From: a virus
Virus record (IMG/VR): IMGVR_UViG_3300045971_000356
Coordinates: 102,303 to 166,302 of that record
Strand: one strand, 5' to 3'
Length of the DNA stretch: 64,000 bases
The notes under the pieces are model-generated. The model was not told where the DNA came from and made no database searches. It saw only the letters and a list, made by a program, of their open reading frames with translations. Position 1 is the stretch's first letter. Each line of letters opens with the position of its first letter. Shown here piece by piece: positions 3,301-63,520 of this stretch. The position numbers and the translations under genes were made by a program.

Positions 3301-4743
3301 ATGAGCAAGTTAGATAGTATTATATTAAATGTTGATAGTTATAAAGTAAGCATGAGCAGGCAGTATCCACCAGGAACTGAGTATGTGTACTCTTACATCG
3401 AATCACGCGGAGGCAAATATGACCGCACAGAATTTCTCGGGGTACAAGCACTTGCCAAGTATTTGGCCGAGCCAATCACGCAAGCGCAAATCGACTACGC
3501 AGATCGAATCTGGACACTCCATGGAGAACCTTTCAACCGAGAAGGTTGGCAGTACATTCTCGATAAACATGCTGGAAGACTTCCGTTGCGTATCAGAGCC
3601 GCTAAAGAAGGACTTATCATCCCTACGAAAAATGTGCTATGTACCATCGAAAACACAGACCCAAAATGCTTCTGGCTTACAACATGGGTCGAAACTGCCG
3701 CGTTACGTGCTATCTGGTACCCAACTACTGTGGGAACCACCAGCTGGCACATCAAGCAAGAAATTCTAAACTACTTGGAGATATCAGGTGATCCCACTAC
3801 TATTGCTTTTAAGCTTCATGATTTTGGTGCTCGCGGGGTTAGCTCTTGCGAGTCTGCTAAAATTGGGGGTGCGGCGCACCTTGTCAACTTCATGGGGACG
3901 GACACTATGTCTGGCATTCTGCACGTCAGTGATACCTACGGTAGCGATGTGTGTGGATTTAGTATCCCAGCCGCAGAACACAGTACCATCACAAGTTGGG
4001 GTCGTGCAAACGAAGTAGATGCTTACCGCAACATGGTCAAGCAGTTCGGTAAGCCTGGTGCCATCCTTGCCGTGGTATCTGACTCGTATGATATTTACAA
4101 AGCCTGCGAAATGTGGGGAACGGAGTTAAAAGATGACGTTATTGCAAGTGGTGCTACTGTTGTTATTCGTCCTGACTCTGGTGACCCTACTATTGTTCTT
4201 CCGAAAATGTTCAACATTCTTGGCAGCAGATTTGGATTTGTTAAAAATTCCAAAGGCTATAAAGTACTCAATAATGTTCGTGTTATTTGGGGCGATGGCA
4301 TTGATTCTATTAGCCTATCTGAAATACTTCGGACTGTTGTTGATGTAGGCGGTTGGTCTGCTGACAACATAGCATTCGGCATGGGTGGCGGACTCTTGCA
4401 ACAATGCAACCGTGACACCCAAGAGTTTGCTATGAAGGCTTCGGCTGTTGGTATTCGTGAATGGATACATGATGCTGCTGGTCTTTTGGAAAACAAGATT
4501 GTTTGGCGTGATGTATTCAAAGATCCAGTTACTGCTTCAAACAAAGCATCTAAGAAGGGTCGTGTGCAACTGTGGACAAATGGTGCTCCTCAAGGCACTG
4601 AATACGAAACCGCTGTAAATGCTCCTACTCGCTGGACTGACAAAGGCTTTGGCTGGGAAGATGCAATGCATACATACTTTGAAAATGGCAAGGTAGTATT
4701 CACACAAACGTTTGACGAAGTTCGTGCTAACTCAATGATGTAA
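3301..4743 (+). CDS. nadV: Nicotinamide phosphoribosyltransferase
   Basis: DSYK, LHDFGARG, SIPAAEHS, VSDSYD, IRPDSGDP and FGMGG motifs. Confidence 0.95.
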   Translation: MSKLDSIILNVDSYKVSMSRQYPPGTEYVYSYIESRGGKYDRTEFLGVQALAKYLAEPITQAQIDYADRIWTLHGEPFNREGWQYILDKHAGRLPLRIRAAKEGLIIPTKNVLCTIENTDPKCFWLTTWVETAALRAIWYPTTVGTTSWHIKQEILNYLEISGDPTTIAFKLHDFGARGVSSCESAKIGGAAHLVNFMGTDTMSGILHVSDTYGSDVCGFSIPAAEHSTITSWGRANEVDAYRNMVKQFGKPGAILAVVSDSYDIYKACEMWGTELKDDVIASGATVVIRPDSGDPTIVLPKMFNILGSRFGFVKNSKGYKVLNNVRVIWGDGIDSISLSEILRTVVDVGGWSADNIAFGMGGGLLQQCNRDTQEFAMKASAVGIREWIHDAAGLLENKIVWRDVFKDPVTASNKASKKGRVQLWTNGAPQGTEYETAVNAPTRWTDKGFGWEDAMHTYFENGKVVFTQTFDEVRANSMM

Positions 4744-5319: not shown

Positions 5320-6336
5320 ATGAAAAAATATCACTCTCTCGTAATGATCGGGCGCTTTCAGCCCGTACATAGTGCACACGCCGCAATTATTCGCCGTGCC
5401 GCCACACTTGCCCAACAGGTAATCATTATCGTTGGTTCAGCAAAGCAACCACGCACATACAAAAATCCCTGGTCGTCACACGAACGCAGGCTAATGCTTC
5501 AAAATGTGGTTGACTCCATTCAAACCGACGCAGTGGTGCGCATCGAGGAAAACATTGACACAATTTACAACGATCAAGCATGGGCTGGTCGCATACAGCA
5601 AATCGTTAGCAAGCACACCACCGCTGATGACAAAATCGGGATCATTGGGCACAAGAAAGACGAGTCCAGTTTTTACCTTGACATGTTCCCACAGTGGGAG
5701 TTTGAGAATGTGCCACTGCTTGAGCCGCTGCATGCGTCCAATGTGCGTGACCTTTACTTCCAAGAAAATGCCAACTTAAAGTTTTTACAAGGTGTGCTGC
5801 CACAACCTGTAATGCGTATGTTGGAGGGTTGGATTGGTACACCAGAGTACACCCAGGTAGTTCGTGAACGATTGTTCGTTGAAAAGTATCGCCAACAGTA
5901 TGCCTCACTGCCATACGAGCCAACCTTTGTCACCGCTGATGCTCTTGTGGTGTGTGCTGGCCATGTGCTTGTCGTTAAACGCAAGTCAGAGCCAGGCCGT
6001 GGATTGCTCGCGTTGCCAGGCGGATACTTGAACGCAAAGACTGACAAGTCGATGAAAGACTGTATGCTGCGTGAGTTGCGTGAGGAGACTGGTATCAAAG
6101 TGCCTGCTCCTGTGTTGCGTGGCTCCATTGTGTCGTCCCGTGTGTTTGACGGATTGGAACGTTCCGCACGTGGACGCATTATAACGCATGCGTTCCGCAT
6201 TGATCTCGCTGACACGGAACTGCCGCGGGTAAAGGGCGCTGATGACGCTTTCTCTGCTAAATTTATACCAATATCTGAACTTAAACCCGATAATATGTTT
6301 GAAGATCATTGGGAGATAATAAACGAAATGTTATAA
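5320..6336 (+). CDS. nadM: Bifunctional NMN adenylyltransferase / ADP-ribose pyrophosphatase (NadM-Nudix)
   Basis: IGRFQPVHSAH (HxxH) and Nudix box ALPGG...RELREETG; ends MFEDH. Confidence 0.93.
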   Translation: MKKYHSLVMIGRFQPVHSAHAAIIRRAATLAQQVIIIVGSAKQPRTYKNPWSSHERRLMLQNVVDSIQTDAVVRIEENIDTIYNDQAWAGRIQQIVSKHTTADDKIGIIGHKKDESSFYLDMFPQWEFENVPLLEPLHASNVRDLYFQENANLKFLQGVLPQPVMRMLEGWIGTPEYTQVVRERLFVEKYRQQYASLPYEPTFVTADALVVCAGHVLVVKRKSEPGRGLLALPGGYLNAKTDKSMKDCMLRELREETGIKVPAPVLRGSIVSSRVFDGLERSARGRIITHAFRIDLADTELPRVKGADDAFSAKFIPISELKPDNMFEDHWEIINEML

Positions 6337-6368
6337 TCATTTGCTCCTTTGACTAGTGGTATAAATAC

Positions 6369-17012: not shown

Positions 17013-17039
17013 AAAGCCCTGGAATCGCAGGGCTTTTTC
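17013..17039 (+). terminator. Intrinsic terminator
   Basis: AAAGCCCTG-loop-CAGGGCTTTTT. Confidence 0.75.
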
Positions 17040-17079
17040 ATGATTATCTATATGTAAAGCGTTCACGATAAATAAGAAC

Positions 17080-19269
17080 ATGAGAGTAAAACACTTTATC
17101 GCAGAACAGCAATTAGACGAGTTGGCAATGAACCCAACCTCCCTCCGCAGTGTCGCCGCAAAAATAGATGCCCGCGTTGGCATGGAGTTTGAAATGTATG
17201 TGCCCGACACAAATGGCGGAGAAGGCGATAGTGATTACGATGAATGGGAACCAGATTACGAAATGGATGAGTCAGTGTCTGATTTTGCCGACATTATAGC
17301 ATTCTTTAACAGCGGTGAATTTGCGGGCTCTTCTGGCCGTGCTTTAGGATTGTTTAAAGAGAAAATGGAGGAAGAATTTTTCGAATGGGTAGAAGAACAA
17401 ATACACGATAGTTGGCGCAAAGAAGGTCGTGATGCTATACGCGACTACATGGTAAACAACGATCTGTGGGACGAGGACGAGGCAATCACACTTGCGTTTG
17501 AGGAAATGGATCTCACAGACGACGAGAAAAATCGTGCTGAAAAAGTTGGAGCCCAGTTAAATGCCCGGAAATATAATCGCGTAAAAGGTGAAGTAAGTTA
17601 TCGCGGTGATGATGAAAAAAATTGGGATGAAGCAGCCAAAAGAGCAGAAGATGCGTTTGAAGAACGGGTTGGTGAAGAGTGGCAAGGGGAAGGTGAAATA
17701 TCCGACGCTGCTTTTGAAGAATACCAAAGTGAGGAACGCGAGAACTATTCAGAGCAAGATTTTTTGCGTGACAAAGGAATAAGAACAGCACTTAACGCTT
17801 TTGAAGAATTTGAACCGCGTGATGTCAACTGGCCACACATGGTCAATGTTGGCGGTGGCGGAAATGGGTCGCAGAGCGCAGATGATGTGGCACGAGATTT
17901 TGAAGAAATGATAGGTCGCCCAGTAATGTCAAGCGATAACTATCATGGAGTAAAGCGTAACGGTGTATCATACATTGTGGAGCCAGACTCAAGTTTAGAT
18001 GAGGCTAATAGCGGCGAGGATGCTGGGTTAGAGTTTGTATCCCCACCACTGCCTGTCAATGACATGCTGTCCGATTTAAAGAAAGTTAAAACATGGTGTG
18101 ACGATAAGGGATGCTACACTAACAGCAGCACTGGGTTACATATAAACATTAGTGTGCCAGGGATGGATGAAGAAGGTAAGTTAGATTATGTGAAGTTAGC
18201 ATTGCTCATGGGTGACAAGCATGTCATTGACCAGTTTGGTAGAGCAGGTAACACTTACGCAAAGTCCGCAATGGACATGATTAAAACTGCGGTTAGAACT
18301 CGCCCTGAGTCCGCCGCAGCAATGCTTGACAAAATGAAGGGCGGACTTGACAAGTTAGCAAGTAAAATAATTCACACCGGTAAAACAGAAAAATACACCA
18401 GCATCAACAACAAAGGAAACTACATAGAGTTTCGTAGTCCAGGCGATGACTGGCTTGGGAAATATTACAATCAGATTGAACCCACAGTGTTGCGTTTAGT
18501 TGTGGCGCTGGACGCAGCATGCGATCCAGAAAAATCTCGCCAAGAGTATCTTAAAAAGTTATACACTTTGCTAACACCATCGTCAAGCGCAGATCCACTC
18601 GCATATTTCGCACAGTATGCGGCAGGGGAGATTCCTAAGGCTGCGTTACGCTCGTTCATCAAACAGGTTCAGTTGACACGAAAAACTAAGCGTGAAGATG
18701 AAAAATTTGGCCCAGTGACAACTTGGACTGTCACTGACAATGTTTATGGGTATGTCAAGGGGGTCAAAGCACGGTCAGCAGCAGAGGCAATATCTGCTAC
18801 TAAACTTCTTTTAGGTGGAGATAGTGTGAATGCTCCGGATAGTCAGTTTACTGCGGTACAAAAAACACCGCAGCAAGCACCAGTGGACAATCTTGAAGGT
18901 AGGCCGTGGGCAAGATGGCGTATAAATGCTACTGCTGGCCGCACTATCCCAGTTTCTGCCAGGTCACATGCTGAGGCTATTCAACGGTGCGGTATACCAG
19001 AAGAACAAATAGTCAGTGTTGTCATTGACGATGGAAATTTAAGACCACCGCAGCAGGAACCTCAACGTAGAGAAGAGACCGACTTTGGCGAAGATGTTCC
19101 ATGGGAAATATACGATAGAGCATCAGGTGAGCGAAGATTTGTATCGTTTATGTCACAAGCAAATAATGGTCAGTTGGCGGCAGCAAACGCAGTAGCAATG
19201 TTAAACAACATAGCCACACCTGATGATCAGCGTCGTGGATTAGGTGTGCGTATGGTAGGTGGTGTGTAA
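17080..19269 (+). CDS. Putative amidoligase (COOH-NH2 ligase type 2) with capsid-targeting-like N-terminus
   Basis: GMEFE, EPDSSL, GLEFVSP, STGLHINI, KY.SIN, IEFRSPG; starts MRVKHFIAE. Confidence 0.8.
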   Translation: MRVKHFIAEQQLDELAMNPTSLRSVAAKIDARVGMEFEMYVPDTNGGEGDSDYDEWEPDYEMDESVSDFADIIAFFNSGEFAGSSGRALGLFKEKMEEEFFEWVEEQIHDSWRKEGRDAIRDYMVNNDLWDEDEAITLAFEEMDLTDDEKNRAEKVGAQLNARKYNRVKGEVSYRGDDEKNWDEAAKRAEDAFEERVGEEWQGEGEISDAAFEEYQSEERENYSEQDFLRDKGIRTALNAFEEFEPRDVNWPHMVNVGGGGNGSQSADDVARDFEEMIGRPVMSSDNYHGVKRNGVSYIVEPDSSLDEANSGEDAGLEFVSPPLPVNDMLSDLKKVKTWCDDKGCYTNSSTGLHINISVPGMDEEGKLDYVKLALLMGDKHVIDQFGRAGNTYAKSAMDMIKTAVRTRPESAAAMLDKMKGGLDKLASKIIHTGKTEKYTSINNKGNYIEFRSPGDDWLGKYYNQIEPTVLRLVVALDAACDPEKSRQEYLKKLYTLLTPSSSADPLAYFAQYAAGEIPKAALRSFIKQVQLTRKTKREDEKFGPVTTWTVTDNVYGYVKGVKARSAAEAISATKLLLGGDSVNAPDSQFTAVQKTPQQAPVDNLEGRPWARWRINATAGRTIPVSARSHAEAIQRCGIPEEQIVSVVIDDGNLRPPQQEPQRREETDFGEDVPWEIYDRASGERRFVSFMSQANNGQLAAANAVAMLNNIATPDDQRRGLGVRMVGGV

Positions 19270-20630
19270 TGTTTTTAACCGAATTTTTTAAAGATGATGA
19301 GCGTGCTCAGATTGAAAGATTACGCGGCACTATTCCACTTGAAACCTGGTGTTCTATTCTCGAACATCACTTAGTCAATGACAGCATACCACTATTGGAA
19401 TCACTTGATCAGAATTTAGTTGATAAAATTAGAAATACCCAATCGTTATCCGCAAGCGTGTCAGTGGGTGACGAATGTATAATTATGCCAATTATTATTA
19501 TCAATAATACGTTACAAATATATGACACTCAAGGAAATTACCCAGCAAAGTCTCAAGTGGAATTTAGTTTAGTAACAGCGAAAGACGGACAGGTTATAAC
19601 AGTTAAATTTAATGATGGCACAGTGTCAACCTTTCCAAATGAGAGATTGTCAAAGCTAACTTATATGACGGTGATTTTATCCAAAAGTAAACAAGACTAT
19701 AACAAATTGCTGACATGGGTAAAATCAATAAGCGATACTGATCTTCCGCCAGTGGCGACCTTGGCAGAATCAAAATTGATGGAATCTGCGACCGCAGAAA
19801 TCTACCACTATGCTAACACGAGCCTTGCGGCAAAGATAATGCGTGACGGTATGTTCAAGTTGAGCAACACTACAGGCAACCAATCTGAAGAAAAATACGC
19901 ATTGCCTGGCTATCCATATTTTTTAAGCACTACTCGAAGTAAAGTGGGTGACTACCATCGCTATGCTGGCTCATCAGCCTGTATGTTTGTTCTTGATGGC
20001 AACTGGTTTAACCAGCATTATAAATCACGCCCAATAGATTACTGGGATCGCTCGTGGAACTATCCTGATTCCCCACGTACTCGTGAAAGTGAAGATCGTA
20101 TTTACAGCAAGTCCCCGTCTATTCCGTTAAACGGCGTTAAAGCAGTTCATGTGTACATTCAAGAACAAAGCGAGTATAGAAGTCCAGAAGTTCGCGGTAT
20201 TTTAATCCAAGCTAAGAAGATGGGCATACAAGCTTATCTATACACTGATGAAACTGCGTGGAGATTACAAAATATTCGCCGTGCTGTAACACCAGGACAA
20301 GCCGCAGCGGTGCTAAAAGGTCCACAACAGCCTGGTTATTCACGCCAACCGTATGACGCAGTTGAGCCATGGTTAGAACTAATCATGAAAAAGAACAAGG
20401 CAGAGTTGTCACCCAAGGCAGAGAAATTGCGTTATAATTTAGTGTACTATGGATCACGATACGAAAACGAGGACAGTGGATTGTCGAATGACATGGCAAA
20501 CTCCCGCAAGCCAGACTCTGGCGGCTACGACATCGCAGTGAAGATAACGGACTACATGCGTAGAAATAGAATACCAGATTTGCTTACATTGAAAAACATG
20601 CTGGTTAAAAAGTGGGATAACATCAAATGA
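19269..20630 (+). CDS. Putative internal virion protein; C-terminal half possibly ADP-ribosyltransferase-like
   Basis: IYH...FLSTTRS...ESEDRI ordering; internal L-x-E sites. Confidence 0.45.
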   Translation: MFLTEFFKDDERAQIERLRGTIPLETWCSILEHHLVNDSIPLLESLDQNLVDKIRNTQSLSASVSVGDECIIMPIIIINNTLQIYDTQGNYPAKSQVEFSLVTAKDGQVITVKFNDGTVSTFPNERLSKLTYMTVILSKSKQDYNKLLTWVKSISDTDLPPVATLAESKLMESATAEIYHYANTSLAAKIMRDGMFKLSNTTGNQSEEKYALPGYPYFLSTTRSKVGDYHRYAGSSACMFVLDGNWFNQHYKSRPIDYWDRSWNYPDSPRTRESEDRIYSKSPSIPLNGVKAVHVYIQEQSEYRSPEVRGILIQAKKMGIQAYLYTDETAWRLQNIRRAVTPGQAAAVLKGPQQPGYSRQPYDAVEPWLELIMKKNKAELSPKAEKLRYNLVYYGSRYENEDSGLSNDMANSRKPDSGGYDIAVKITDYMRRNRIPDLLTLKNMLVKKWDNIK

Positions 20631-20783
20631 CTAATCAAAATAATACCCCAATTAAAAGACGAAGGTTATATAAAGAGCAATCTGAAAATTCTGTTCTAAA
20701 AAATAATGCTTCGATCGAAAATCAATTGTCGCAAACAGTTATAATAATGCGTCAAATGCATGCTCTTGTTACGAAGTTAGAAC

Positions 20784-21086
20784 ATGAAAATCAAAGAAAT
20801 ACTAAGTGAGTCAGCGGATTGGATCCACAATTTTTGGCTACTTCATTCAGTGGACATTAAATCTTTCTTGGACGATACACAAAAATTATATCAATTGTAT
20901 AATGTATCATCGGAAAAAGATTTAATTAAATCTGAATTAGTGAGGACATATAGTTATTTAGATGAATTATTGCGAAATCCAAAATGGGAACACCTTGAAG
21001 AAGATCCAGATTATGACAAGATATATGATGGTTTACTTGATGTTTACGAAGGTATTCAATCTTTTTTACGAGCAAATAGTAAATGA
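20784..21086 (+). CDS. Putative internal head protein
   Basis: Starts MKIKEILSE; similar to 21487..21795. Confidence 0.65.
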   Translation: MKIKEILSESADWIHNFWLLHSVDIKSFLDDTQKLYQLYNVSSEKDLIKSELVRTYSYLDELLRNPKWEHLEEDPDYDKIYDGLLDVYEGIQSFLRANSK

Positions 21087-21490
21087 AATCCACAGAGTTT
21101 ATTGACGAGCATAGTAACTATGCTATCAACCCAGCATACACACCAGAGGTAATGCGTGAGCTAACTCTTATGTGCCGCGCGGCTGAAGGTTACTTTGAAA
21201 AGCATGGGTTCAAACTACACTTCACTGACCACTTTTTCGATCAGATGAAATTAAAGCGTGGCAATCGCGACATTTACACTACACAGGATTTAATGGCAAC
21301 GCTGGTGAAGATTTTACAACGCGGCATGCAGTTTTTCAAAGGCAAAGTGCCAGGCACAAATTTTGTTTTTTACGATCAGCACACTAATATTCACATCGCA
21401 ATAAAGCGTGATAATGTAGATTTTTATGTTGCTACTACCACTGTTCGCGACTACAAATGGACTGGTGAAGGACAGGTGATAAGACTATGA
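21083..21490 (+). CDS. Putative internal head protein
   Basis: Starts MKSTEFIDE; FTDHFFDQ motif. Confidence 0.65.
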   Translation: MKSTEFIDEHSNYAINPAYTPEVMRELTLMCRAAEGYFEKHGFKLHFTDHFFDQMKLKRGNRDIYTTQDLMATLVKILQRGMQFFKGKVPGTNFVFYDQHTNIHIAIKRDNVDFYVATTTVRDYKWTGEGQVIRL

Positions 21491-21795
21491 GAGCAAAAGA
21501 ATTTATTACTGAGTCGGCTGAGACTATTGAAACGTATTTGGCACTTATGGGATTTTCATACACAAAGTTAGAGCAGCAGTCTTCTTTAGTAAAACAATAT
21601 TATGATGCCCACAAAATAAGTCATGAAAAAATGAAGAGTTATCTAATAGATATCAATATAGCAATACACTCAGTCACTGACGACCCAAATGTATGGAATA
21701 AATTCAGTGATGATCCGGAAGTTAGTGTTATATACAACAAGATAGCAACCTTGGCAAATAGCAACTATGAATATTTAGAGAGGAATACAGCATAA
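21487..21795 (+). CDS. Putative internal head protein
   Basis: Starts MRAKEFITE. Confidence 0.65.
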   Translation: MRAKEFITESAETIETYLALMGFSYTKLEQQSSLVKQYYDAHKISHEKMKSYLIDINIAIHSVTDDPNVWNKFSDDPEVSVIYNKIATLANSNYEYLERNTA

Positions 21796-22388
21796 TGTTT
21801 AACAGAATACCACTGTGGAATGAGCGGCAAATTTTAATTAGCGAATCAACATATCTTGCTGATACCCATTGGGAAAAAAACCTTGCTTTGCGCGGAAAAA
21901 AAGTTGAGGTAATGCTTGAACAAATAAGTAGTGAATTAAACGAGGTAAACATAGACAACAGCAAGGGTGCTGGTGCTGTACCATACAATGCTGACGTTGA
22001 TTACTTTGGTGTTCGTGTGTTGATGGAACCGTCTACATTTTTAGCGTTAGCAGCACCACTGACAGAGCCAGTGAGCAAAGAAGGGCTAATGAAGCATTTA
22101 CAAAATGGCGGTTCCATTGGTGCTCCATTCCTTGATATCAATGTGCCGCCAGAGTGGGACGATGGCAACTTCAAGCAGTATGCTAAGATACGCGGGCACG
22201 AAGGTCGCAACAGGATGATGGCAGTTATGGATCTTGAAGGCGATGCTCCTATTGAGGTGCATTTGTTTTTCAAGCAGTATCGCCGCCGCGAAGTAACAGA
22301 TCAGATGATTGCTAAGGCCAATGAGGGTATGATTAGAGAACAAACGACCACATTGATACCTGGACCATTGTTTAAGGTAGTAGCATGA
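21795..22388 (+). CDS. ParB/Srx-like protein
   Basis: APFL...IRGHEGRNR motif. Confidence 0.55.
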   Translation: MFNRIPLWNERQILISESTYLADTHWEKNLALRGKKVEVMLEQISSELNEVNIDNSKGAGAVPYNADVDYFGVRVLMEPSTFLALAAPLTEPVSKEGLMKHLQNGGSIGAPFLDINVPPEWDDGNFKQYAKIRGHEGRNRMMAVMDLEGDAPIEVHLFFKQYRRREVTDQMIAKANEGMIREQTTTLIPGPLFKVVA

Positions 22389-22828
22389 GAGCAACTGAAT
22401 TCTTATCTGAAGGTATTATCAACTGGGTATCAAGAAAACTTGGTAGAGCGTGGGGCAAGCCCGGAGACGTAGTACATGGTAATGTGGTGGCAGACTATTT
22501 AGAAAATTCAACGTACCATACAGAAAGCAAGCTAAAAAAAATTAGAAAAAGTAAATTTCAATTGACTAATTTAGATTTAGCGACAGCCGAGAAATACAGG
22601 CATTTTACTAACTCCCAAAATCACGGGTCCGTTATAGATATTGACAAATTAGATAATGCACGGCAGATGAAGATTACATATGACAGCTTGATTAAATATC
22701 CCCCAGTGTTAGCACACGATGGATTTATTTGGGATGGCAATCATCGTCTTGAACGAGCAATAGAGTTGCAGTTACCCAGCATTCCTGTATTATTACAAGT
22801 TAGTATGGATAAAAGGAGTAGTATATGA
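22385..22828 (+). CDS. ParB/Srx-like protein with capsid-targeting-like tag
   Basis: MRATEFLSE; PPVL..IWDGNHRL. Confidence 0.7.
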   Translation: MRATEFLSEGIINWVSRKLGRAWGKPGDVVHGNVVADYLENSTYHTESKLKKIRKSKFQLTNLDLATAEKYRHFTNSQNHGSVIDIDKLDNARQMKITYDSLIKYPPVLAHDGFIWDGNHRLERAIELQLPSIPVLLQVSMDKRSSI

Positions 22829-22980
22829 ATGATCAACCAGAAAAATTACAATTCAATATTGACGGCTCAATTAAAGAAAATAGTCAACCCATTGATGCCG
22901 CACAAGAAAAAAAGTATTTAGACGATCTTGCAGTAGAGATAAATCAATGGTGTGAGGAAATCTTAAATGCGAGCAACTGA
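22825..22980 (+). CDS. Small hypothetical protein (51 aa, not in the ORF track)
   Basis: AAGGAG RBS and ATGA overlap. Confidence 0.55.
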   Translation: MNDQPEKLQFNIDGSIKENSQPIDAAQEKKYLDDLAVEINQWCEEILNASN

Positions 22981-23446
22981 ATTTTTACTTGAAGCAACCG
23001 GTGGGATCATGAACATTTTGCGCCGTGAGTTACCGGGCTGGCCTGATTATATTATCAAGGATATGGTCTACACTACTATCAATAATCAGAAAGATTTAGA
23101 AGAGAAGATAGAGCATGTACGGTGGTTAGCAACACAAATTTCATCTTGGAAATTCTATCCTAAAATGCCACTTACATTTGATATGCTAAGTCAAGACACA
23201 CAAAAGAAAATGAAAGTTGATCGTAACTTTGGATCTAAGAATCCGTTTGGAGTCGTTAACGATGAACAGCGAAGTGCTACTGCTGATACTATTGTTGGCA
23301 GTAAGGGGATGGAAAATTTGCCACCAGTGATAATGGTTAAAGAAGCAGACGGGCTCGACTTGTGGGAAGGTTGGCATAGAACCATGGCAGCATTTCGGTC
23401 TCACCCAGAAGGATTTAAAATAAATGCGTGGATAGGACAAAAATGA
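22967..23446 (+). CDS. ParB/Srx-like protein with capsid-targeting-like tag
   Basis: MRATEFLLE; PPVIM..LWEGWHR. Confidence 0.65.
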   Translation: MRATEFLLEATGGIMNILRRELPGWPDYIIKDMVYTTINNQKDLEEKIEHVRWLATQISSWKFYPKMPLTFDMLSQDTQKKMKVDRNFGSKNPFGVVNDEQRSATADTIVGSKGMENLPPVIMVKEADGLDLWEGWHRTMAAFRSHPEGFKINAWIGQK

Positions 23447-24096
23447 GAGCAAACGAATTTTTACTTGAAGGATTAAATCATCCAATGATTGTAGTGGATG
23501 TACAGCCAGAGTACGCTTACTATACACCACAGACTGAAAAAATCTGTGCTGACATTATTCGCTTTGTCACTAAGCAAACTGGTCCAGTGTTGATGCTTGT
23601 CAATGCTGAGGATTCTGGCGTATCTGCAGACACAAAAGAGTTTATCACACAATATTGGAACAACATAGATGTTGAAGATTGGGACGACGAAGATCCGTCT
23701 GTCGTAACCAACAACGTTAACTGGTCGCGGTTTACCTTCATTGATAAGGGATATGGCCACCTTAGGTCCTGGATGGATCAAGGTGTTCCGCCCGCCGTTA
23801 TAATTAAAGTGATACGAGCAATGTATCAAGAAAAAGTAAACGATAGCAGAGAATTATTTGGCGGCGAAGACTCTGATGAATATGAAGCAGGAATGCAAAC
23901 TCTTATGGGAAATTATGTCAGTCATGCCATAGGCGGTGATTGTATATCCGTTGGTTGGGCGTGTGTTGCTACATTGAAAAAATTTAGTGGTGCTTACTTA
24001 GTTGGTGGCGGAAGGAACGAGTGCTTACGAGAAGTTGAATTATTGATGAATGCGTTTAACATTAAATATAAGAGAATAGACTCATTAGTATACTAA
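23443..24096 (+). CDS. Isochorismatase-fold cysteine hydrolase with capsid-targeting-like tag
   Basis: MRANEFLLE; IVVDVQ, DKG, NECL (Asp-Lys-Cys triad). Confidence 0.65.
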   Translation: MRANEFLLEGLNHPMIVVDVQPEYAYYTPQTEKICADIIRFVTKQTGPVLMLVNAEDSGVSADTKEFITQYWNNIDVEDWDDEDPSVVTNNVNWSRFTFIDKGYGHLRSWMDQGVPPAVIIKVIRAMYQEKVNDSRELFGGEDSDEYEAGMQTLMGNYVSHAIGGDCISVGWACVATLKKFSGAYLVGGGRNECLREVELLMNAFNIKYKRIDSLVY

Positions 24097-24097
24097 T

Positions 24098-25216
24098 ATG
24101 AAAATAAACGAAATATTACGAGAATTAGCCTACCCAGGCAACATTGGGATTATGGAACTAACTAAGTTCTTTCAGATGGCCACTGATGAGCAAAAAATGC
24201 ATTTTAAGAAATTAAAAGCATCAGGCAAAACAGAAGCAGCATGGAAATTTATGCAGTCTGTCGTTGATGTTAAGCTGCATGAAGGTGGCTGGGCTAACCC
24301 AGTTACACAAGGAACGCATATTACACCACAGTTAGTTGACATGGTGTTTAAAGTATTGAACATTTTCGTTAAACGATTAAATGTATTTCTACAAAGCAAG
24401 GAAATTCCGCCAGTTGAGTTAGGTAATCCTTGCGGTAGCACAACGTATTATAAACGTGATTTAATGCAAAACCCCACCCGTGAATACGGTGACATAGATG
24501 TCAACTTGTTCATCCCACGCATTGAGGGAACAACAAATAATGCTAACGCTGATATTATCCGCACTGCGGTTCAAGAGTTTTGCGAAGGTGACCCAGATTT
24601 CCAAACAAGTAACGGAACAAACGTTATCGTTAGGGTTGGAAAAGACTATATACAAGTTGATTTAATAACGGCGTTTTACCACAACAAAGAATGGACTAAT
24701 GCATTAGCACCTGAATACAATGTCAAAGGTGTGTTATGCAACAGCATTTACTCATCACTTGGCGAAGCGTTAAGCCTTAGCATTGGTGGTGGACATGGTG
24801 TTCAAGGTAAGTTTGATAGCGAAGGAAACTTAGTGCCGTTCAAAACAGTTAAAGGAGTTACTCTTAAAACGATCACAAACAAACCAGACTCGTGGGCGTT
24901 AGACATTGCTAAGTTCTTTGGATGTAAGAAAATACACCCATTGCTTAAACAATATCCAGGCAAGTTAGACGAAGTGAGAGTTGCTGACATGATAAACAGT
25001 ATTAAGGGAATTGCACTATCCATGGAGTTAAATGGAGTTGGTAACTCGTCAGAGTTACTGCAAAAAATCAAATCAATATACTTGGGCAAAATAGAGAAGG
25101 CTGCAACGAGCAGCAAGTATGACAAAGCAGCAACGCCCGAAGCAAAAGCAAAAGCAGATCACACTAAAGAAATGTTGATACAAAAGTCAACTGAATTTGC
25201 CAAAATGTTTGATTAA
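24098..25216 (+). CDS. Pol-beta-superfamily nucleotidyltransferase-like protein with capsid-targeting-like tag
   Basis: MKINEILRE; GS...YGDIDV...QVDL. Confidence 0.65.
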   Translation: MKINEILRELAYPGNIGIMELTKFFQMATDEQKMHFKKLKASGKTEAAWKFMQSVVDVKLHEGGWANPVTQGTHITPQLVDMVFKVLNIFVKRLNVFLQSKEIPPVELGNPCGSTTYYKRDLMQNPTREYGDIDVNLFIPRIEGTTNNANADIIRTAVQEFCEGDPDFQTSNGTNVIVRVGKDYIQVDLITAFYHNKEWTNALAPEYNVKGVLCNSIYSSLGEALSLSIGGGHGVQGKFDSEGNLVPFKTVKGVTLKTITNKPDSWALDIAKFFGCKKIHPLLKQYPGKLDEVRVADMINSIKGIALSMELNGVGNSSELLQKIKSIYLGKIEKAATSSKYDKAATPEAKAKADHTKEMLIQKSTEFAKMFD

Positions 25217-25271
25217 GTTGTTTTAATACAACAAAATAACCGTTGACTTTTGGCTCAAACGGCTATACAAT
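25217..25271 (+). promoter_or_regulatory. GTTG-N8-CAAC palindrome plus sigma70 promoter
   Basis: TTGACT-N17-TACAAT with ATG at 25278. Confidence 0.7.
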
Positions 25272-25277
25272 AGCCGT

Positions 25278-25430
25278 ATGAAGCAATTAATGTACGTTTA
25301 CACTTCCACCCGCAAGAATCTGTGTGGTGAACTTACACCAATCGTGATTGAAACCAATCTCACGTATGCTTTGCCTTATTGGCAGGCACGAAAACGCAGT
25401 AATCCCAAAATATTTTGGAAAATTGCTTGA
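25278..25430 (+). CDS. Small leaderless early protein (50 aa)
   Basis: ATG 6 nt after the -10 box. Confidence 0.55.
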   Translation: MKQLMYVYTSTRKNLCGELTPIVIETNLTYALPYWQARKRSNPKIFWKIA

Positions 25431-25483
25431 CTTTATTGCCTTTTGGCTGTATAATACTCACATACACAAGCAAAGGAAGTAAA

Positions 25484-25900
25484 ATGAGCACACATTCAGT
25501 TATTGGTGTTATGCACGGGGATAAATGTAAAGCAGTTTATTGTCACTGGGATGGGTACCTTGAACATAACGGGAATATGTTGTTAAAACACTACGATTCC
25601 GCCAAAGCAAATCACCTCGTTTCGTTGGGCTCCGTCAGCGCACTAGAACGCTCTGTCGTGCCCGCAACTGAAGCCCACAGCTTCGACACCCCAGAGACGG
25701 GCGTCACATTGTTCTACGGGCGCGATCGTGGGGATACGGACGTTGATTTTGAGGTTTTTCACAGCGATCAAGAGATGTTTGAGTACTACGAGGAGAGTTT
25801 CTACTACGTCATGAAGGACGGAGTGTGGTATTTTAGCAACGGTTTTCATGGCTGGATGACGCTTGAATCAGCACTAGAAACAGCAAAAGAAACGGTGTAA
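25484..25900 (+). CDS. Conserved-looking phage early protein
   Basis: Own promoter and RBS; VYCHWDGY and YGRDRG motifs. Confidence 0.75.
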   Translation: MSTHSVIGVMHGDKCKAVYCHWDGYLEHNGNMLLKHYDSAKANHLVSLGSVSALERSVVPATEAHSFDTPETGVTLFYGRDRGDTDVDFEVFHSDQEMFEYYEESFYYVMKDGVWYFSNGFHGWMTLESALETAKETV

Positions 25901-25939
25901 ACTGTTGACTTTTGGCCCTTTTAGCTGTATAATCCACGT

Positions 25940-26305
25940 ATGGAACAAGAAATCAAAACGTTAAATGCCCTTCAGCGGCGTATCACCAGAACATTATACA
26001 GATGTGTTCCTGGTAGCGCACGGGCTGGCAAAGTGCGTATGATGTACGCAAGAATCGTGCGCAAACTCGAGCTGATTCACGGTCCAGATGCTCATTGCAG
26101 CCTTGTGGACTACGATTTGGCTAACACATATTCAGACTGGCACAAAGAACTCACTGGCTCTCGCCCCAAAGCGTTTGTTACCCGTGCTGATGTGCAAGCC
26201 TGGATCATCCGTCACAGTTCACCAGAGGCTATGGCGGAGAGAATCAAACTCTGGGACGCCGAGAGCAGAATTCTTGGCAGCACTAACTACAAGGAATCAG
26301 TATGA
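25940..26305 (+). CDS. Hypothetical early protein (leaderless)
   Basis: TTGACT-N17-TATAAT-N6-ATG. Confidence 0.75.
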   Translation: MEQEIKTLNALQRRITRTLYRCVPGSARAGKVRMMYARIVRKLELIHGPDAHCSLVDYDLANTYSDWHKELTGSRPKAFVTRADVQAWIIRHSSPEAMAERIKLWDAESRILGSTNYKESV

Positions 26306-26580
26306 ACAACCCAACACCATTGCCCGAACTTGAAGAAGGCAAAAACAAAATTCTCAAAGCAGGCTGGACACTGGTCCGCAAATCTTTTGTCGCAACTGTA
26401 ACACTAATCTCCGAGATTGCAGTTATTGCGGTGATTGGCTCAATGGCTGGCTCGTACTTGTCAGCCAAAACCATCGTGTCAGACTGCCAAACTGTCAGTC
26501 TTGCCAAAGTTGGCGACACTTATATTAAATGCTCATTGGTTGAGCCAACTAAAGATCCCGTAACAGCACCCCCACGGTAA
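26302..26580 (+). CDS. Membrane protein
   Basis: TM segment; ATGA overlap. Confidence 0.65.
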   Translation: MNNPTPLPELEEGKNKILKAGWTLVRKSFVATVTLISEIAVIAVIGSMAGSYLSAKTIVSDCQTVSLAKVGDTYIKCSLVEPTKDPVTAPPR

Positions 26581-26592
26581 GGAGTATAAGTC

Positions 26593-26799
26593 ATGTTTAA
26601 GTTTTTATCTGGCATCGCGTTTGGCATTTTCATTATGGTCACTGCAACTAATCCGCAAGCGGTGAAAAATCTCGCTGGCAAAGCAGTGGACGCAACGCAC
26701 AACGGAGTCACTGCTACTGTTGAAACTCTCAACAAGCCTGAAGAATCTACTTTGGTCACTAAAGCAAAAGAAGTGGTCAAGGAAGTAGCGCCCAAGTAA
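26593..26799 (+). CDS. Small membrane-anchored protein
   Basis: AAGGAG RBS; N-terminal hydrophobic segment. Confidence 0.65.
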   Translation: MFKFLSGIAFGIFIMVTATNPQAVKNLAGKAVDATHNGVTATVETLNKPEESTLVTKAKEVVKEVAPK

Positions 26800-26928
26800 T
26801 GGCGCGAATATTTGATTTTGGTTAAATCAGTCACAAAAAACCGTTGACAAACAGGCCAAAGTCAAGTATCATTAGCACATGAAGCAAACACTTCATTTTT
26901 ATCTTTTTAACCCAAATAGGAGTTAGTT

Positions 26929-59421: not shown

Positions 59422-59948
59422 ATAAATTTGGGGTCGCTCATCAAAACACAAACGAGTTATGCGACTTGCTGTATTGTGACCCGTCAGCAGACTTGTATAA
59501 AGCGTTGGTTGACGATCCAGAAGAATTCAACGTAAGCGTTAAAAAACTGTATTGCGACATCAAGCCACTACAAAAATATACAATCTTCCACCGTCTCGCA
59601 GGACAAACGTTTGAAGATCAACTACACGACTTTGACACTGCTAATCAAGAGCAATGGCTGATGCCAGAAAAATACAAGAAACTTGACATAGCAGAGTGGT
59701 TGATTAAGCAATGCGCGAACGAGGAAGAACTTCAACGTGTGGGCATGGAGTTACTCATGTATCAAGATCGTGGGCTAATGCCACTGCTAAAGTATATGAA
59801 GTATTTAGTGGATCATTTTAGAGAAAATGGTGTAATTTGGGGTGTTGGCCGCGGAAGTAGCACTGCGTCATTTGTATTATTTCTTATCGGAATTCATAAA
59901 ATTAATGCCCTATACTACGACCTTGACATCAATGAATTTCTTAAATAA
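59412..59948 (+). CDS. Stand-alone DNA polymerase III alpha (DnaE) fragment
   Basis: RV..EL...WGVGRGSSTAS.VL.LIGI..I. Confidence 0.8.
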   Translation: MEVDKFGVAHQNTNELCDLLYCDPSADLYKALVDDPEEFNVSVKKLYCDIKPLQKYTIFHRLAGQTFEDQLHDFDTANQEQWLMPEKYKKLDIAEWLIKQCANEEELQRVGMELLMYQDRGLMPLLKYMKYLVDHFRENGVIWGVGRGSSTASFVLFLIGIHKINALYYDLDINEFLK

Positions 59949-61670: not shown

Positions 61671-62603
61671 ATGTCAGAAATCAATTCACTTTGGGTGGAA
61701 AAATATCGCCCACCAACGTTAGACGGATATGTCTTTCAAAATGAAGAGCAAAGAGCACAAATACAATCTTGGGTAGATGCAAAGTCCATTCCAAATTTAT
61801 TGTTTAGCGGTAGTGCCGGAATTGGTAAAACAACGGTTGCTAAAATTTTAATCAACGCACTTGGCATGGACGAGTTTGACGTGTTAGTGGCAAATGGGTC
61901 AAAGGAAGGTAGAAAGATTGAATGGGTCAACAAACTCATTAATTTTTGCCAAACTATGCCATTTGGAGATATGAAGATTGTGCTAATTGACGAAGCTGAT
62001 TACATGAACAATCAATCCGTACAACCAGCATTGCGTAACTTGATGGAAGAATACAGTAGCACAGTTCGATTTATTTTAACGTGCAACTACCCACACAAAA
62101 TCATCCCAGCAATACATAGCAGGTGCCAAGGTTTTCACATTGACAAAATTGACCACACTGAATTTACTGCTCGTGTTGCGACAGTGTTAGTCACTGAAAA
62201 CATTGCATTTGATTTGGACACGCTCGACAGCTATGTAAAGGCAACATATCCAGACTTGCGCAAATGCCTTAACTCATGCCAACAAAACTCATCATCTGGC
62301 ACATTACGCACACCAACAAGCGGATCATCGTCAGCTGATTACAAGTTAGCAATGGTTGATTTGTTTAAGAAGGGTAAAGTGCGTGAAGCACGTACATTAA
62401 TTTGCAGCAACGTGGATACAGAGGAAATTGACGATATATTCCGCTGGATGTATGACAACTTGGATATCTGGAGTAAAACAGACCAAGGCCAAGACGCAGC
62501 TATTCTGATTATTCGGCAAGGGTTGTTGAACCATGCTGCAATTGGAGATGCTGAGGTAAACTTGTCAGCGACATTGACTGAGTTGTCACAAATTGAAAGT
62601 TAA
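61671..62603 (+). CDS. Clamp loader large subunit (RFC / T4 gp44-like)
   Basis: WVEKYRP, GSAGIGKTT, DEAD, SRC. Confidence 0.93.
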   Translation: MSEINSLWVEKYRPPTLDGYVFQNEEQRAQIQSWVDAKSIPNLLFSGSAGIGKTTVAKILINALGMDEFDVLVANGSKEGRKIEWVNKLINFCQTMPFGDMKIVLIDEADYMNNQSVQPALRNLMEEYSSTVRFILTCNYPHKIIPAIHSRCQGFHIDKIDHTEFTARVATVLVTENIAFDLDTLDSYVKATYPDLRKCLNSCQQNSSSGTLRTPTSGSSSADYKLAMVDLFKKGKVREARTLICSNVDTEEIDDIFRWMYDNLDIWSKTDQGQDAAILIIRQGLLNHAAIGDAEVNLSATLTELSQIES

Positions 62604-62938: not shown

Positions 62939-63520
62939 ATGAAGGCAAATGAAATATTAGAGGCATTTAATGCAGGCAGAATGCCGGCAATCAAATCTGA
63001 TGATTATCAAGAATCTTACCTTCCTATTTTGCAAAAAGCAAAAAAGTTAGCTGATGTTAGAAAAAATTTAGAACTGTTTTGCTATGCTAACAAAATTTAT
63101 TTGTTAGTTAAAGATGAAGAAGTAATTGTTGGGAATTTGAACTTATCACCACAAAACATCGCAGGTAAAGAATATTTGCATGTAGATGGGATCTTTGTGC
63201 GGGAAGAATATAGAAAAACCGCAGCACTTTATTGGTTATTATATTCGGTTAAAGAAGTCTTAAAGAGAACCCCAGTCATTGCCGACGGCGCAATGTTTAC
63301 CGACGGGCAAGCACTGATACGAGCGATTCAAGACCATAGTATGTTTAACGCACACAAGTTGAATAAAGACACAGGTGAAAAATCCGAGTTGACTGGTCTA
63401 ATCACCAGCGATGTATATTGCTATATCTTTGAATCAACGAAACTTGGATTTGGTAAACACTTCTTCGAAGGTACAACTTTACCATTTATTTGGTACCCAC
63501 TATTCGAGGAATTGCCATGA
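62939..63520 (+). CDS. Possible GNAT-like protein with capsid-targeting-like tag
   Basis: ATAAATA-N4-ATG; MKANEILE; VDGIFVREEYRK. Confidence 0.55.
   Translation: MKANEILEAFNAGRMPAIKSDDYQESYLPILQKAKKLADVRKNLELFCYANKIYLLVKDEEVIVGNLNLSPQNIAGKEYLHVDGIFVREEYRKTAALYWLLYSVKEVLKRTPVIADGAMFTDGQALIRAIQDHSMFNAHKLNKDTGEKSELTGLITSDVYCYIFESTKLGFGKHFFEGTTLPFIWYPLFEELP

Follow-up and report, generated by a model that had tools for sequence, protein, structure and literature searches.

Unrelated enzymes carry a short N-terminal tag resembling the T4 capsid-targeting sequence in an operon-like array of a large uncultured phage

A striking feature of the stretch of viral DNA analysed here is a run of genes whose products share almost nothing but their first nine residues. 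The stretch, hereafter the window, is 64,000 nt long and corresponds to bases 102303-166302 of the linear, 166,302-bp IMG/VR virus record IMGVR_UViG_3300045971_000356, whose completeness is estimated at 47%; positions are those of the window unless record coordinates are stated. The run, at 17080-25216, consists of twelve open reading frames (ORFs), all on the plus strand and each overlapping or abutting the next, as in a tightly coupled operon. Eight N-termini had been quoted in an earlier note on this DNA as resembling the internal-protein targeting sequence of phage T4, and all eight were confirmed, at 17080, 20784, 21083, 21487, 22385, 22967, 23443 and 24098; their consensus is M-[KR]-x-x-[EH]-[FI]-[IL]-x-E.

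The first gene of the array (17080..19269; 729 amino acids) codes for a tagged amidoligase, beginning MRVKHFIAE; residues 270-377 match Pfam Amidoligase_2 (PF12224) with 25 bits, above the curated cut-off of 22, so that the amidoligase assignment of the earlier note holds. The protein has a second site, L-D-E, past the tag and ahead of a conserved 'AMNP' start, and its metagenomic homologues, numbering more than 2000, nearly all have tag-like N-termini. The next gene (19269..20630; 453 amino acids) has a degenerate N-terminus, MFLTEFFKD. Its residues 165-453 align with proteins of relatives, of about 290 amino acids, that begin MRATEFLTE, and an internal K-L-M-E (residues 169-172) falls exactly on the tag of those relatives, with L170 and E172 invariant; the ESM Atlas gave for its body only leads to domains of unknown function, and an H-Y-E pattern in it may be ADP-ribosyltransferase-like. 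There follow a small untagged ORF (20627..20809; 60 amino acids), taken from the ORF list and of uncertain coding status, and three short tagged genes with the N-termini MKIKEILSE (20784..21086; 100 amino acids), MKSTEFIDE (21083..21490; 135 amino acids, with an orthologue of 66% identity in locus L005) and MRAKEFITE (21487..21795; 102 amino acids). The product of 21795..22388 (197 amino acids) lacks a strict N-terminal tag, and its residues 46-55, S-E-L-N-E|VNIDN, align on the start of the proteins of relatives, MRLRELLSE|VKIDN; its body, with an H-E-G-R-N-R-M motif, may be ParB/Srx-like. Judged from these internal tag remnants, the larger untagged ORFs at 19269 and 21795 also belong to the tagged set.

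Two further ParB/Srx-like candidates lie downstream, on either side of a second small untagged ORF (22825..22980; 51 amino acids), again from the ORF list and of uncertain coding status. The first, MRATEFLSE (22385..22828; 147 amino acids), has a D-G-N-H-R motif and an ESM Atlas structure match to a ParB_N cluster (TM 0.43/0.69); the second, MRATEFLLE (22967..23446; 159 amino acids), has an E-G-W-H-R motif, and by alignment its body is fused in relatives to a GNAT domain or to a second ParB-like module. The ParB/Srx-like call made earlier is retained as a lead, resting on the DGNHR and EGWHR motifs and the Atlas match; no Pfam match accompanies it.

The cysteine hydrolase proposed earlier is borne out by structure. 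Its gene (23443..24096; 217 amino acids, MRANEFLLE) starts at an ATG and not at the GTG that precedes it at 23428. The protein has no Pfam match at E values up to 10; when its AF2 model (pLDDT 86.7) was compared with 48,161 chains, the top 28 matches were all members of the isochorismatase/cysteine-hydrolase superfamily, at Z 7.8-10 over 117-129 aligned residues. D19, K102 and C194, which never vary among 42 aligned sequences, form a candidate Asp-Lys-Cys triad. The nucleotidyltransferase call likewise stands, for the last gene of the array (24098..25216; 372 amino acids, MKINEILRE), whose product has a body of the Pol-beta superfamily at residues 65-372. The AF2 model (pLDDT 89.9, with residues 1-15 and 59-64 below 50) matches Pol beta/PolX with a Foldseek probability of ~1, and residues 66-296 gave VIA Z 9.6 against African swine fever virus PolX and Pol beta. 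G113-S114 and D132/D134, corresponding to the G-S and D-x-D motifs of the palm fold, are invariant, and one homologue carries PF01909. In the models of both proteins the tag stands apart from the fold as a segment of low confidence (residues 1-10 have a mean pLDDT of 44 and 51). In the 24098 protein a second site, K-L-H-E|GGW, likewise modelled with a pLDDT below 50, lies between a three-helix module and the nucleotidyltransferase body.

The three-helix module itself, 'YPGNIG..MEL ... VGVKL[QH]G' (residues ~10-61 of the 24098 protein; window 24125-24280), is a mobile domain with matches in 251 cluster representatives (60-1313 amino acids); it is placed at the N-terminus in 68, in the middle in 40 and at the C-terminus in 26; stand-alone proteins of 60-90 amino acids also occur. 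A Glu nearly always precedes it, and 'KEFxE' often follows.

For seven of the eight tagged bodies of the array neither Pfam nor PHROGs gave a match, and sequence searches of the PDB returned only chance-level matches. In an all-against-all BLAST the tagged bodies have nothing in common past the first ~10 residues, except for two weak pairs of paralogues (20784/21487, E 2e-4; 22385/22967, E 1e-4). As the bodies are unrelated in this comparison, the tag was rejected as the mark of a paralogous family.

The tag is not confined to the array. In the 166,302-bp record as a whole a strict pattern, M[KR]xx[EHQ][FIL][ILF]xE, heads 11 ORFs and a somewhat looser version 13; 20 shuffled genomes gave none. 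Five of the tagged ORFs are found beyond the window (record coordinates 48244, 55257, 56572, 60055 and 60504). Three of these have a recognisable body: a DUF6267 protein (48244; E 8e-28), a T7 gp0.7-like kinase (55257; phrog_15752, E 2e-8, with a weak match to Kinase-PolyVal) and a GNAT protein (56572; E 9e-5). The earlier note had added MKANEILE, the start of an ORF at 62939..63520 (plus strand, 193 amino acids). Its Glu is at position 8 and it is no strict match to the pattern; it is a plausible variant, because an eight-residue form is also found among orthologues of the 23443 protein, and its membership is uncertain. The protein has a weak GNAT signal (Pfam Acetyltransf_1, E 0.0037, under the cut-off), and an ATAAATA motif lies 11 nt upstream of the ORF.

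The wider distribution was examined in a clade sample made up of 80 IMG/VR loci around amidoligase homologues, the complete IMG/VR genome G003 (346,856 bp) and the present record. The sample holds 183 tagged ORFs (142 distinct), 176 of which begin at the first ATG of the ORF, and their bodies fall into 33 BLAST clusters. The tag pattern heads 116 of 1930 ORFs (6.0%), as against 1.3e-4 per internal position, a difference of about 465-fold. Glu9 is imposed by the search pattern; Ala at position 3, which is not, occurs in 80 of the 142 distinct tags, and position 7 is I, L or V in 140. Just past Glu9 the information content drops to about 0.5 bit. Among 120 homologues of the 23443 protein, 102 have a strict tag, with Glu9 abutting the start of the body, G-L-N-H-P.., and the tag is present in 81 of 120 homologues of the 24098 protein, where Glu9 mostly stands immediately ahead of GGWA. 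Synonymous codon use at the conserved Glu and Phe equals background. Thus, the tag is real, acts at the level of the protein and is found across the clade.

As a side observation on the same proteins, a basic module (…NFADGKNPGRKGL…) recurs at the C-terminus of several tagged proteins of relatives, at G003 59896 (L092), L048:15000-16085, L063:3134-4201 and L075:12781-14223, and is absent from this record.

The phages that carry the tag are large and uncultured. A DNA pattern for the tag alone retrieved 46 records, all of them fragments of genomes estimated at ~300-520 kb. The clade that bears the tag consists of uncultured phages of this size that are distant relatives of the Pseudomonas jumbo phage PA5oct (Arenbergviridae). 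PA5oct is the nearest cultured phage by clamp loader (50% identity), followed in that ranking by Phosso, Atu_ph07 and RsoM2USA. G003 is much closer: its clamp loader is 64% identical, and it has about 55 proteins in common with the record, in long syntenic runs. Against 50,697 cultured phage records, neither megablast with the array nor tblastn with the 23443 and 24098 proteins gave a match; a scan of IMG/VR for close relatives, with the amidoligase as query, also gave none, and PA5oct has no homologue of any cargo body from the window. The amidoligase was considered as a partner of the tag and rejected: none is found in the complete, tag-bearing genomes G019 (99%) and G040 (100%, with 8 tagged ORFs), where the positive controls matched.

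Each of the seven relatives with a completeness of 90% or more encodes a T4 gp21-type head protease (Peptidase S77); of these seven, four were reached through the amidoligase and three through the DNA pattern of the tag alone. A head module like gp20-21-22-23 is found in relatives, and in G003 the order of the head genes is that of T4, with portal, acidic protein, protease, scaffold-like protein and capsid protein in succession. Within their first ~45 residues, the capsid proteins of PA5oct and five relatives contain several hydrophobic-x-Glu sites; the last of these, [FY]-L-x-E|NASAG, aligns near the T4 sequence FLTE|AEIGG and is the expected maturation site. A tagged G003 protein of 66 amino acids aligns with this capsid site at 48% identity (E 1e-5), the Glu of its tag falling on the capsid Glu. 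Its first 24 residues copy the maturation site (…EFIKE|NASVGATSSG); it lies at G003 62030-62230 (L093), similar ORFs of about 65 amino acids occur in many loci (e.g., L055:15274 and L061:18665), and no copy was found in this record.

The likeness to T4 is close. Two T4 genes (IPII/IPIII) begin MKTYQEFIAE, and gp24, Alt, gp22, gp21 and gp67 have N-termini with similar hydrophobic-x-Glu ends; the start of gp24, MAKINELLRE, may be compared with that of the 24098 protein, MKINEILRE. The first 10 residues of IPIII are enough for packaging, and processing is governed by residues 8 and 10, Asp at position 10 blocking cleavage while targeting is kept (PMC9026906). In I/L-x-E motifs the protease gp21 cleaves behind the Glu (PMC12991175). 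The internal proteins of T-even phages are diverse defence proteins whose sole common part is the capsid-targeting sequence (CTS) (PMC3012670); they are ejected, as are tagged T4 enzymes such as Alt (PMC3012670; PMC9026906), and CTS-like sequences are known in relatives of T4 (PMC9026906). In both systems the signal lies at the very N-terminus of unrelated proteins and runs basic, acidic, two hydrophobic residues, any residue and Glu, and the relatives have the same protease family and the same order of head genes as T4. The differences are also clear. The tag has nine residues here and ten in T4; the phages are uncultured, of ~300-520 kb, and not Straboviridae; half a genome holds at least 13 cargo genes; enzymes, often acidic, make up most of the cargo, whereas that of T4 is small and basic; and the longer proteins retain internal L-x-E junctions. 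A more distant parallel is offered by phiKZ, 201phi2-1 and SPN3US, giant phages in which a distant homologue of gp21 cleaves many of the proteins inside the head behind a Glu, and these proteins are ejected into the host (PMC9026906; PMC7411985; PMC10052503). Those phages are of a different lineage, one that has virion RNA polymerases, and cut at S/A-x-E, without a short common N-terminal tag.

The central proposal of the earlier note, a T4-like capsid-targeting tag on otherwise unrelated enzymes, is supported at the sequence level by the co-occurrence with the S77 protease, the capsid site, the sharp edge after Glu9 and the domains of the cargo. By analogy with T4, we consider it likely that the N-terminus M-[RK]-A/x-x-E-[FI]-[ILV]-x-E serves injected enzymes as a T4-type propeptide for capsid targeting. 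As the tag closely resembles the head-loading signal of T4, we infer that a set of enzymes is probably injected together with the phage DNA. The array would be transcribed as one coupled operon during head building; the tag would bind the scaffolding core of the prohead and carry the attached protein inside, where a gp21-family (Peptidase S77) protease would cut past the hydrophobic-x-Glu, i.e., after Glu9. The same protease would also cut the internal L-x-E junctions of the 19269, 21795 and 24098 proteins (in the last, K-L-H-E|GGW). The freed enzymes would remain in the DNA-filled head, leave it with the DNA at the next infection and act ahead of any phage gene expression, most likely in host take-over or counter-defence. 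The cargo encoded by the window would include the amidoligase, the nucleotidyltransferase of Pol-beta fold, the enzyme of cysteine-hydrolase fold and two or three ParB/Srx-like proteins, joined by the T7 gp0.7-like kinase, the GNAT protein and the DUF6267 protein encoded elsewhere in the genome.

This repertoire recalls phage polyvalent proteins, among whose principal domains are kinase, GNAT, Pol-beta nucleotidyltransferase and ParB-like domains and which have been proposed to be packaged and injected (PMC5512222). The same domains occur here, the ParB-like one as a lead only, and the proposed role, that of effectors delivered alongside the DNA, is the same (PMC5512222). In contrast to polyvalent proteins, defined as having 2-15 domains per polypeptide, the window has separate genes, mostly with one tag and one body each. 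Relatives fuse the amidoligase and several of the window bodies into single ORFs of 1345-2006 amino acids. L-x-E is retained where the parts of multi-domain forms join. A word search of PMC5512222 did not find amidoligase or isochorismatase-like domains.

The only virion data that bear on the tag, a hint in favour of packaging, come from PA5oct, in which a protein-level scan found three strict tags. One of them heads EST35_0150, a protein of 73 amino acids whose gene lies between those for the portal and the protease and which is annotated as 'structural protein, ESI-MS/MS'; the PA5oct paper has no discussion of propeptides. EST35_0150 is the only strict-tag protein detected in virions, and its position is that of the T4 prohead core proteins gp67/68. 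This could suggest that tagged proteins enter the prohead and are cut there without being injected effectors, serving instead, in the producing cell or within the capsid, as assembly helpers, core or scaffold components or enzymes that modify DNA or capsid, or being degraded and expelled as scaffold is. T4 scaffold and core proteins do bear similar N-termini, several tagged proteins are small and acidic, and an amidoligase could in principle modify head proteins. We nevertheless regard this explanation as unlikely, given that kinase, GNAT, Pol-beta nucleotidyltransferase and ParB-like domains are classes of injected polyvalent protein, that comparable T4 proteins leave the head, and that the bodies, in so far as models and alignments tell, are folded enzymes with conserved catalytic residues and not scaffold-like coiled coils. 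The chances are poorer still that the tag is read by other machinery, whether a co-encoded modifying enzyme such as the amidoligase or a system that recognises degradation or localisation signals. Amidoligases are proposed peptide-modifying ligases, and the gene lies beside clusters of tagged genes in many relatives; yet the amidoligase is itself tagged, the S77 protease is present in every one of the near-complete genomes, and the tag fits both the known motif of that protease and the capsid maturation site.

It is very improbable that the conserved start is mainly a translation signal, that is, a feature of the mRNA or of the nascent peptide in genes with a weak Shine-Dalgarno sequence. Such a role would fit the poor Shine-Dalgarno sequences of most tagged genes, which overlap the preceding stop, and the strong bias at codon 2, where AGA makes up 0.64 as against 0.21 in the background and AAA 0.91 as against 0.63. 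It does not fit the background-like choice of synonymous codons at the conserved Glu and Phe, the conservation by class of amino acid (F/I, I/L/V, E) and not by base, or the internal remnants, in which L-x-E is kept at a great distance from start codons. The codon data and these remnants make it unlikely that the role is purely translational; a contribution at codon 2 may remain.

Several observations weigh against packaging and injection as the function of the tag. Because codon 2 is biased to AGA and AAA, part of the conservation may serve translation. In some orthologues of the 24098 protein (e.g., P0142, P0149, P0150 and P0154) Asn replaces Glu9 (…EFLLN|GGWA); by analogy with the Asp10 variant of T4, these might be targeted yet uncleaved. 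Many of the cargo proteins are acidic, unlike the basic internal proteins of T4, and the second cluster of tags in the record sits among replication genes. In PA5oct, the strict-tag ORF EST35_0271 was not detected in virions, and the members of the tag-rich clade are uncultured. In the record, at 47% completeness, neither an S77 protease nor a gp23-type capsid gene was found; the link to the protease therefore rests on relatives, with their clamp-loader identity of 64% and about 55 common proteins. The exact T4 late promoter, TATAAATA, is not found upstream of 17080 and has 3 copies in the window where 3.75 are expected, and the related heptamer ATAAATA also lies ahead of non-structural genes.

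The mechanism is already known from T4; full-text literature searches turned up no description of capsid-targeting tags, either for this clade or for the enzyme families involved. A broader joint claim can be made only tentatively: that the tag is a clade-wide zip code, that domains are swapped between tagged genes and polyproteins, that the L-x-E joints are cut by the protease and that the 'YPGNIG..MEL' module may be a second loading adaptor. If the zip code is real, the injected proteome of hundreds of uncultured phages of ~350 kb could be listed from sequence alone. It would yield a list of candidate enzymes for host take-over or counter-defence (amidoligase, nucleotidyltransferase, nicotinamidase-like hydrolase, ParB-like protein, kinase and GNAT) and a short tag to try for loading foreign proteins into phage heads. 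Packaging and injection of tagged enzymes would also link two ideas so far treated apart, that of a capsid-targeting sequence in T4 and that of polyvalent proteins in phages.

The array is preceded by signals that bear on its expression. A terminator-like hairpin read from the sequence (AGCCCTG / CAGGGCT, with a 6-nt loop and a T-run; 17015..17038, plus strand) lies just past the upstream gene and is taken to mark the start of a new transcription unit. The statement that the array follows a late promoter is not confirmed, given that the exact TATAAATA is absent before 17080 and not enriched; only the 7-mer ATAAATA, 7 of the 8 bases of the T4 late promoter, is present (17068..17074, plus strand), beginning 12 nt ahead of the array's first ATG. 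ATAAATA is concentrated near starts, with 41 of its 85 copies in the record lying within 60 nt upstream of one, against 4.6% expected, and it was not found before the head genes of the relatives G003 and G040. It often stands 8-13 nt from the ATG, at the position of a Shine-Dalgarno sequence (in the window, e.g., at 6361, 17068, 39708 and 62928). The motif could be either a promoter for leaderless or short-leader mRNAs, a late promoter or a translation signal. A gp55-like late sigma factor was found in G003 (E 6e-6) and in G040 (E 7e-7), and was not detected in this 47%-complete fragment; from these signals, late expression of the array is plausible.

Directly past the array (25243-26872) are three near-consensus promoters of the sigma-70 type, TTGAC[TA]-17-TATAAT/TATCAT, each matching at 11 of 12 positions, and a fourth that matches at 10 of 12; each lies before a small gene. 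By its sequence, the region looks like a switch from the long operon to early-type units.

Elsewhere the window encodes a T4-type clamp loader, an ATP-dependent DNA ligase, NAMPT, an NMNAT/Nudix enzyme and tail-like proteins. Two of these genes, for NAMPT and for the bifunctional NMNAT/Nudix enzyme (3301-4743 and 5320-6336), belong to the salvage of nicotinamide adenine dinucleotide (NAD) and share the window with the nicotinamidase-like hydrolase; together with the tagged hydrolase they make a NAD-centred theme possible. Lastly, a homing-endonuclease gene of G003 (207.4-208.2 kb, phrog_655) is matched by at least six ORFs of the record, at record coordinates 5937(-), 34580(-), 58673(+), 90232(-), 95951(-) and 162207(+), the last of which corresponds to window position 59905; the family is therefore multi-copy in this genome.

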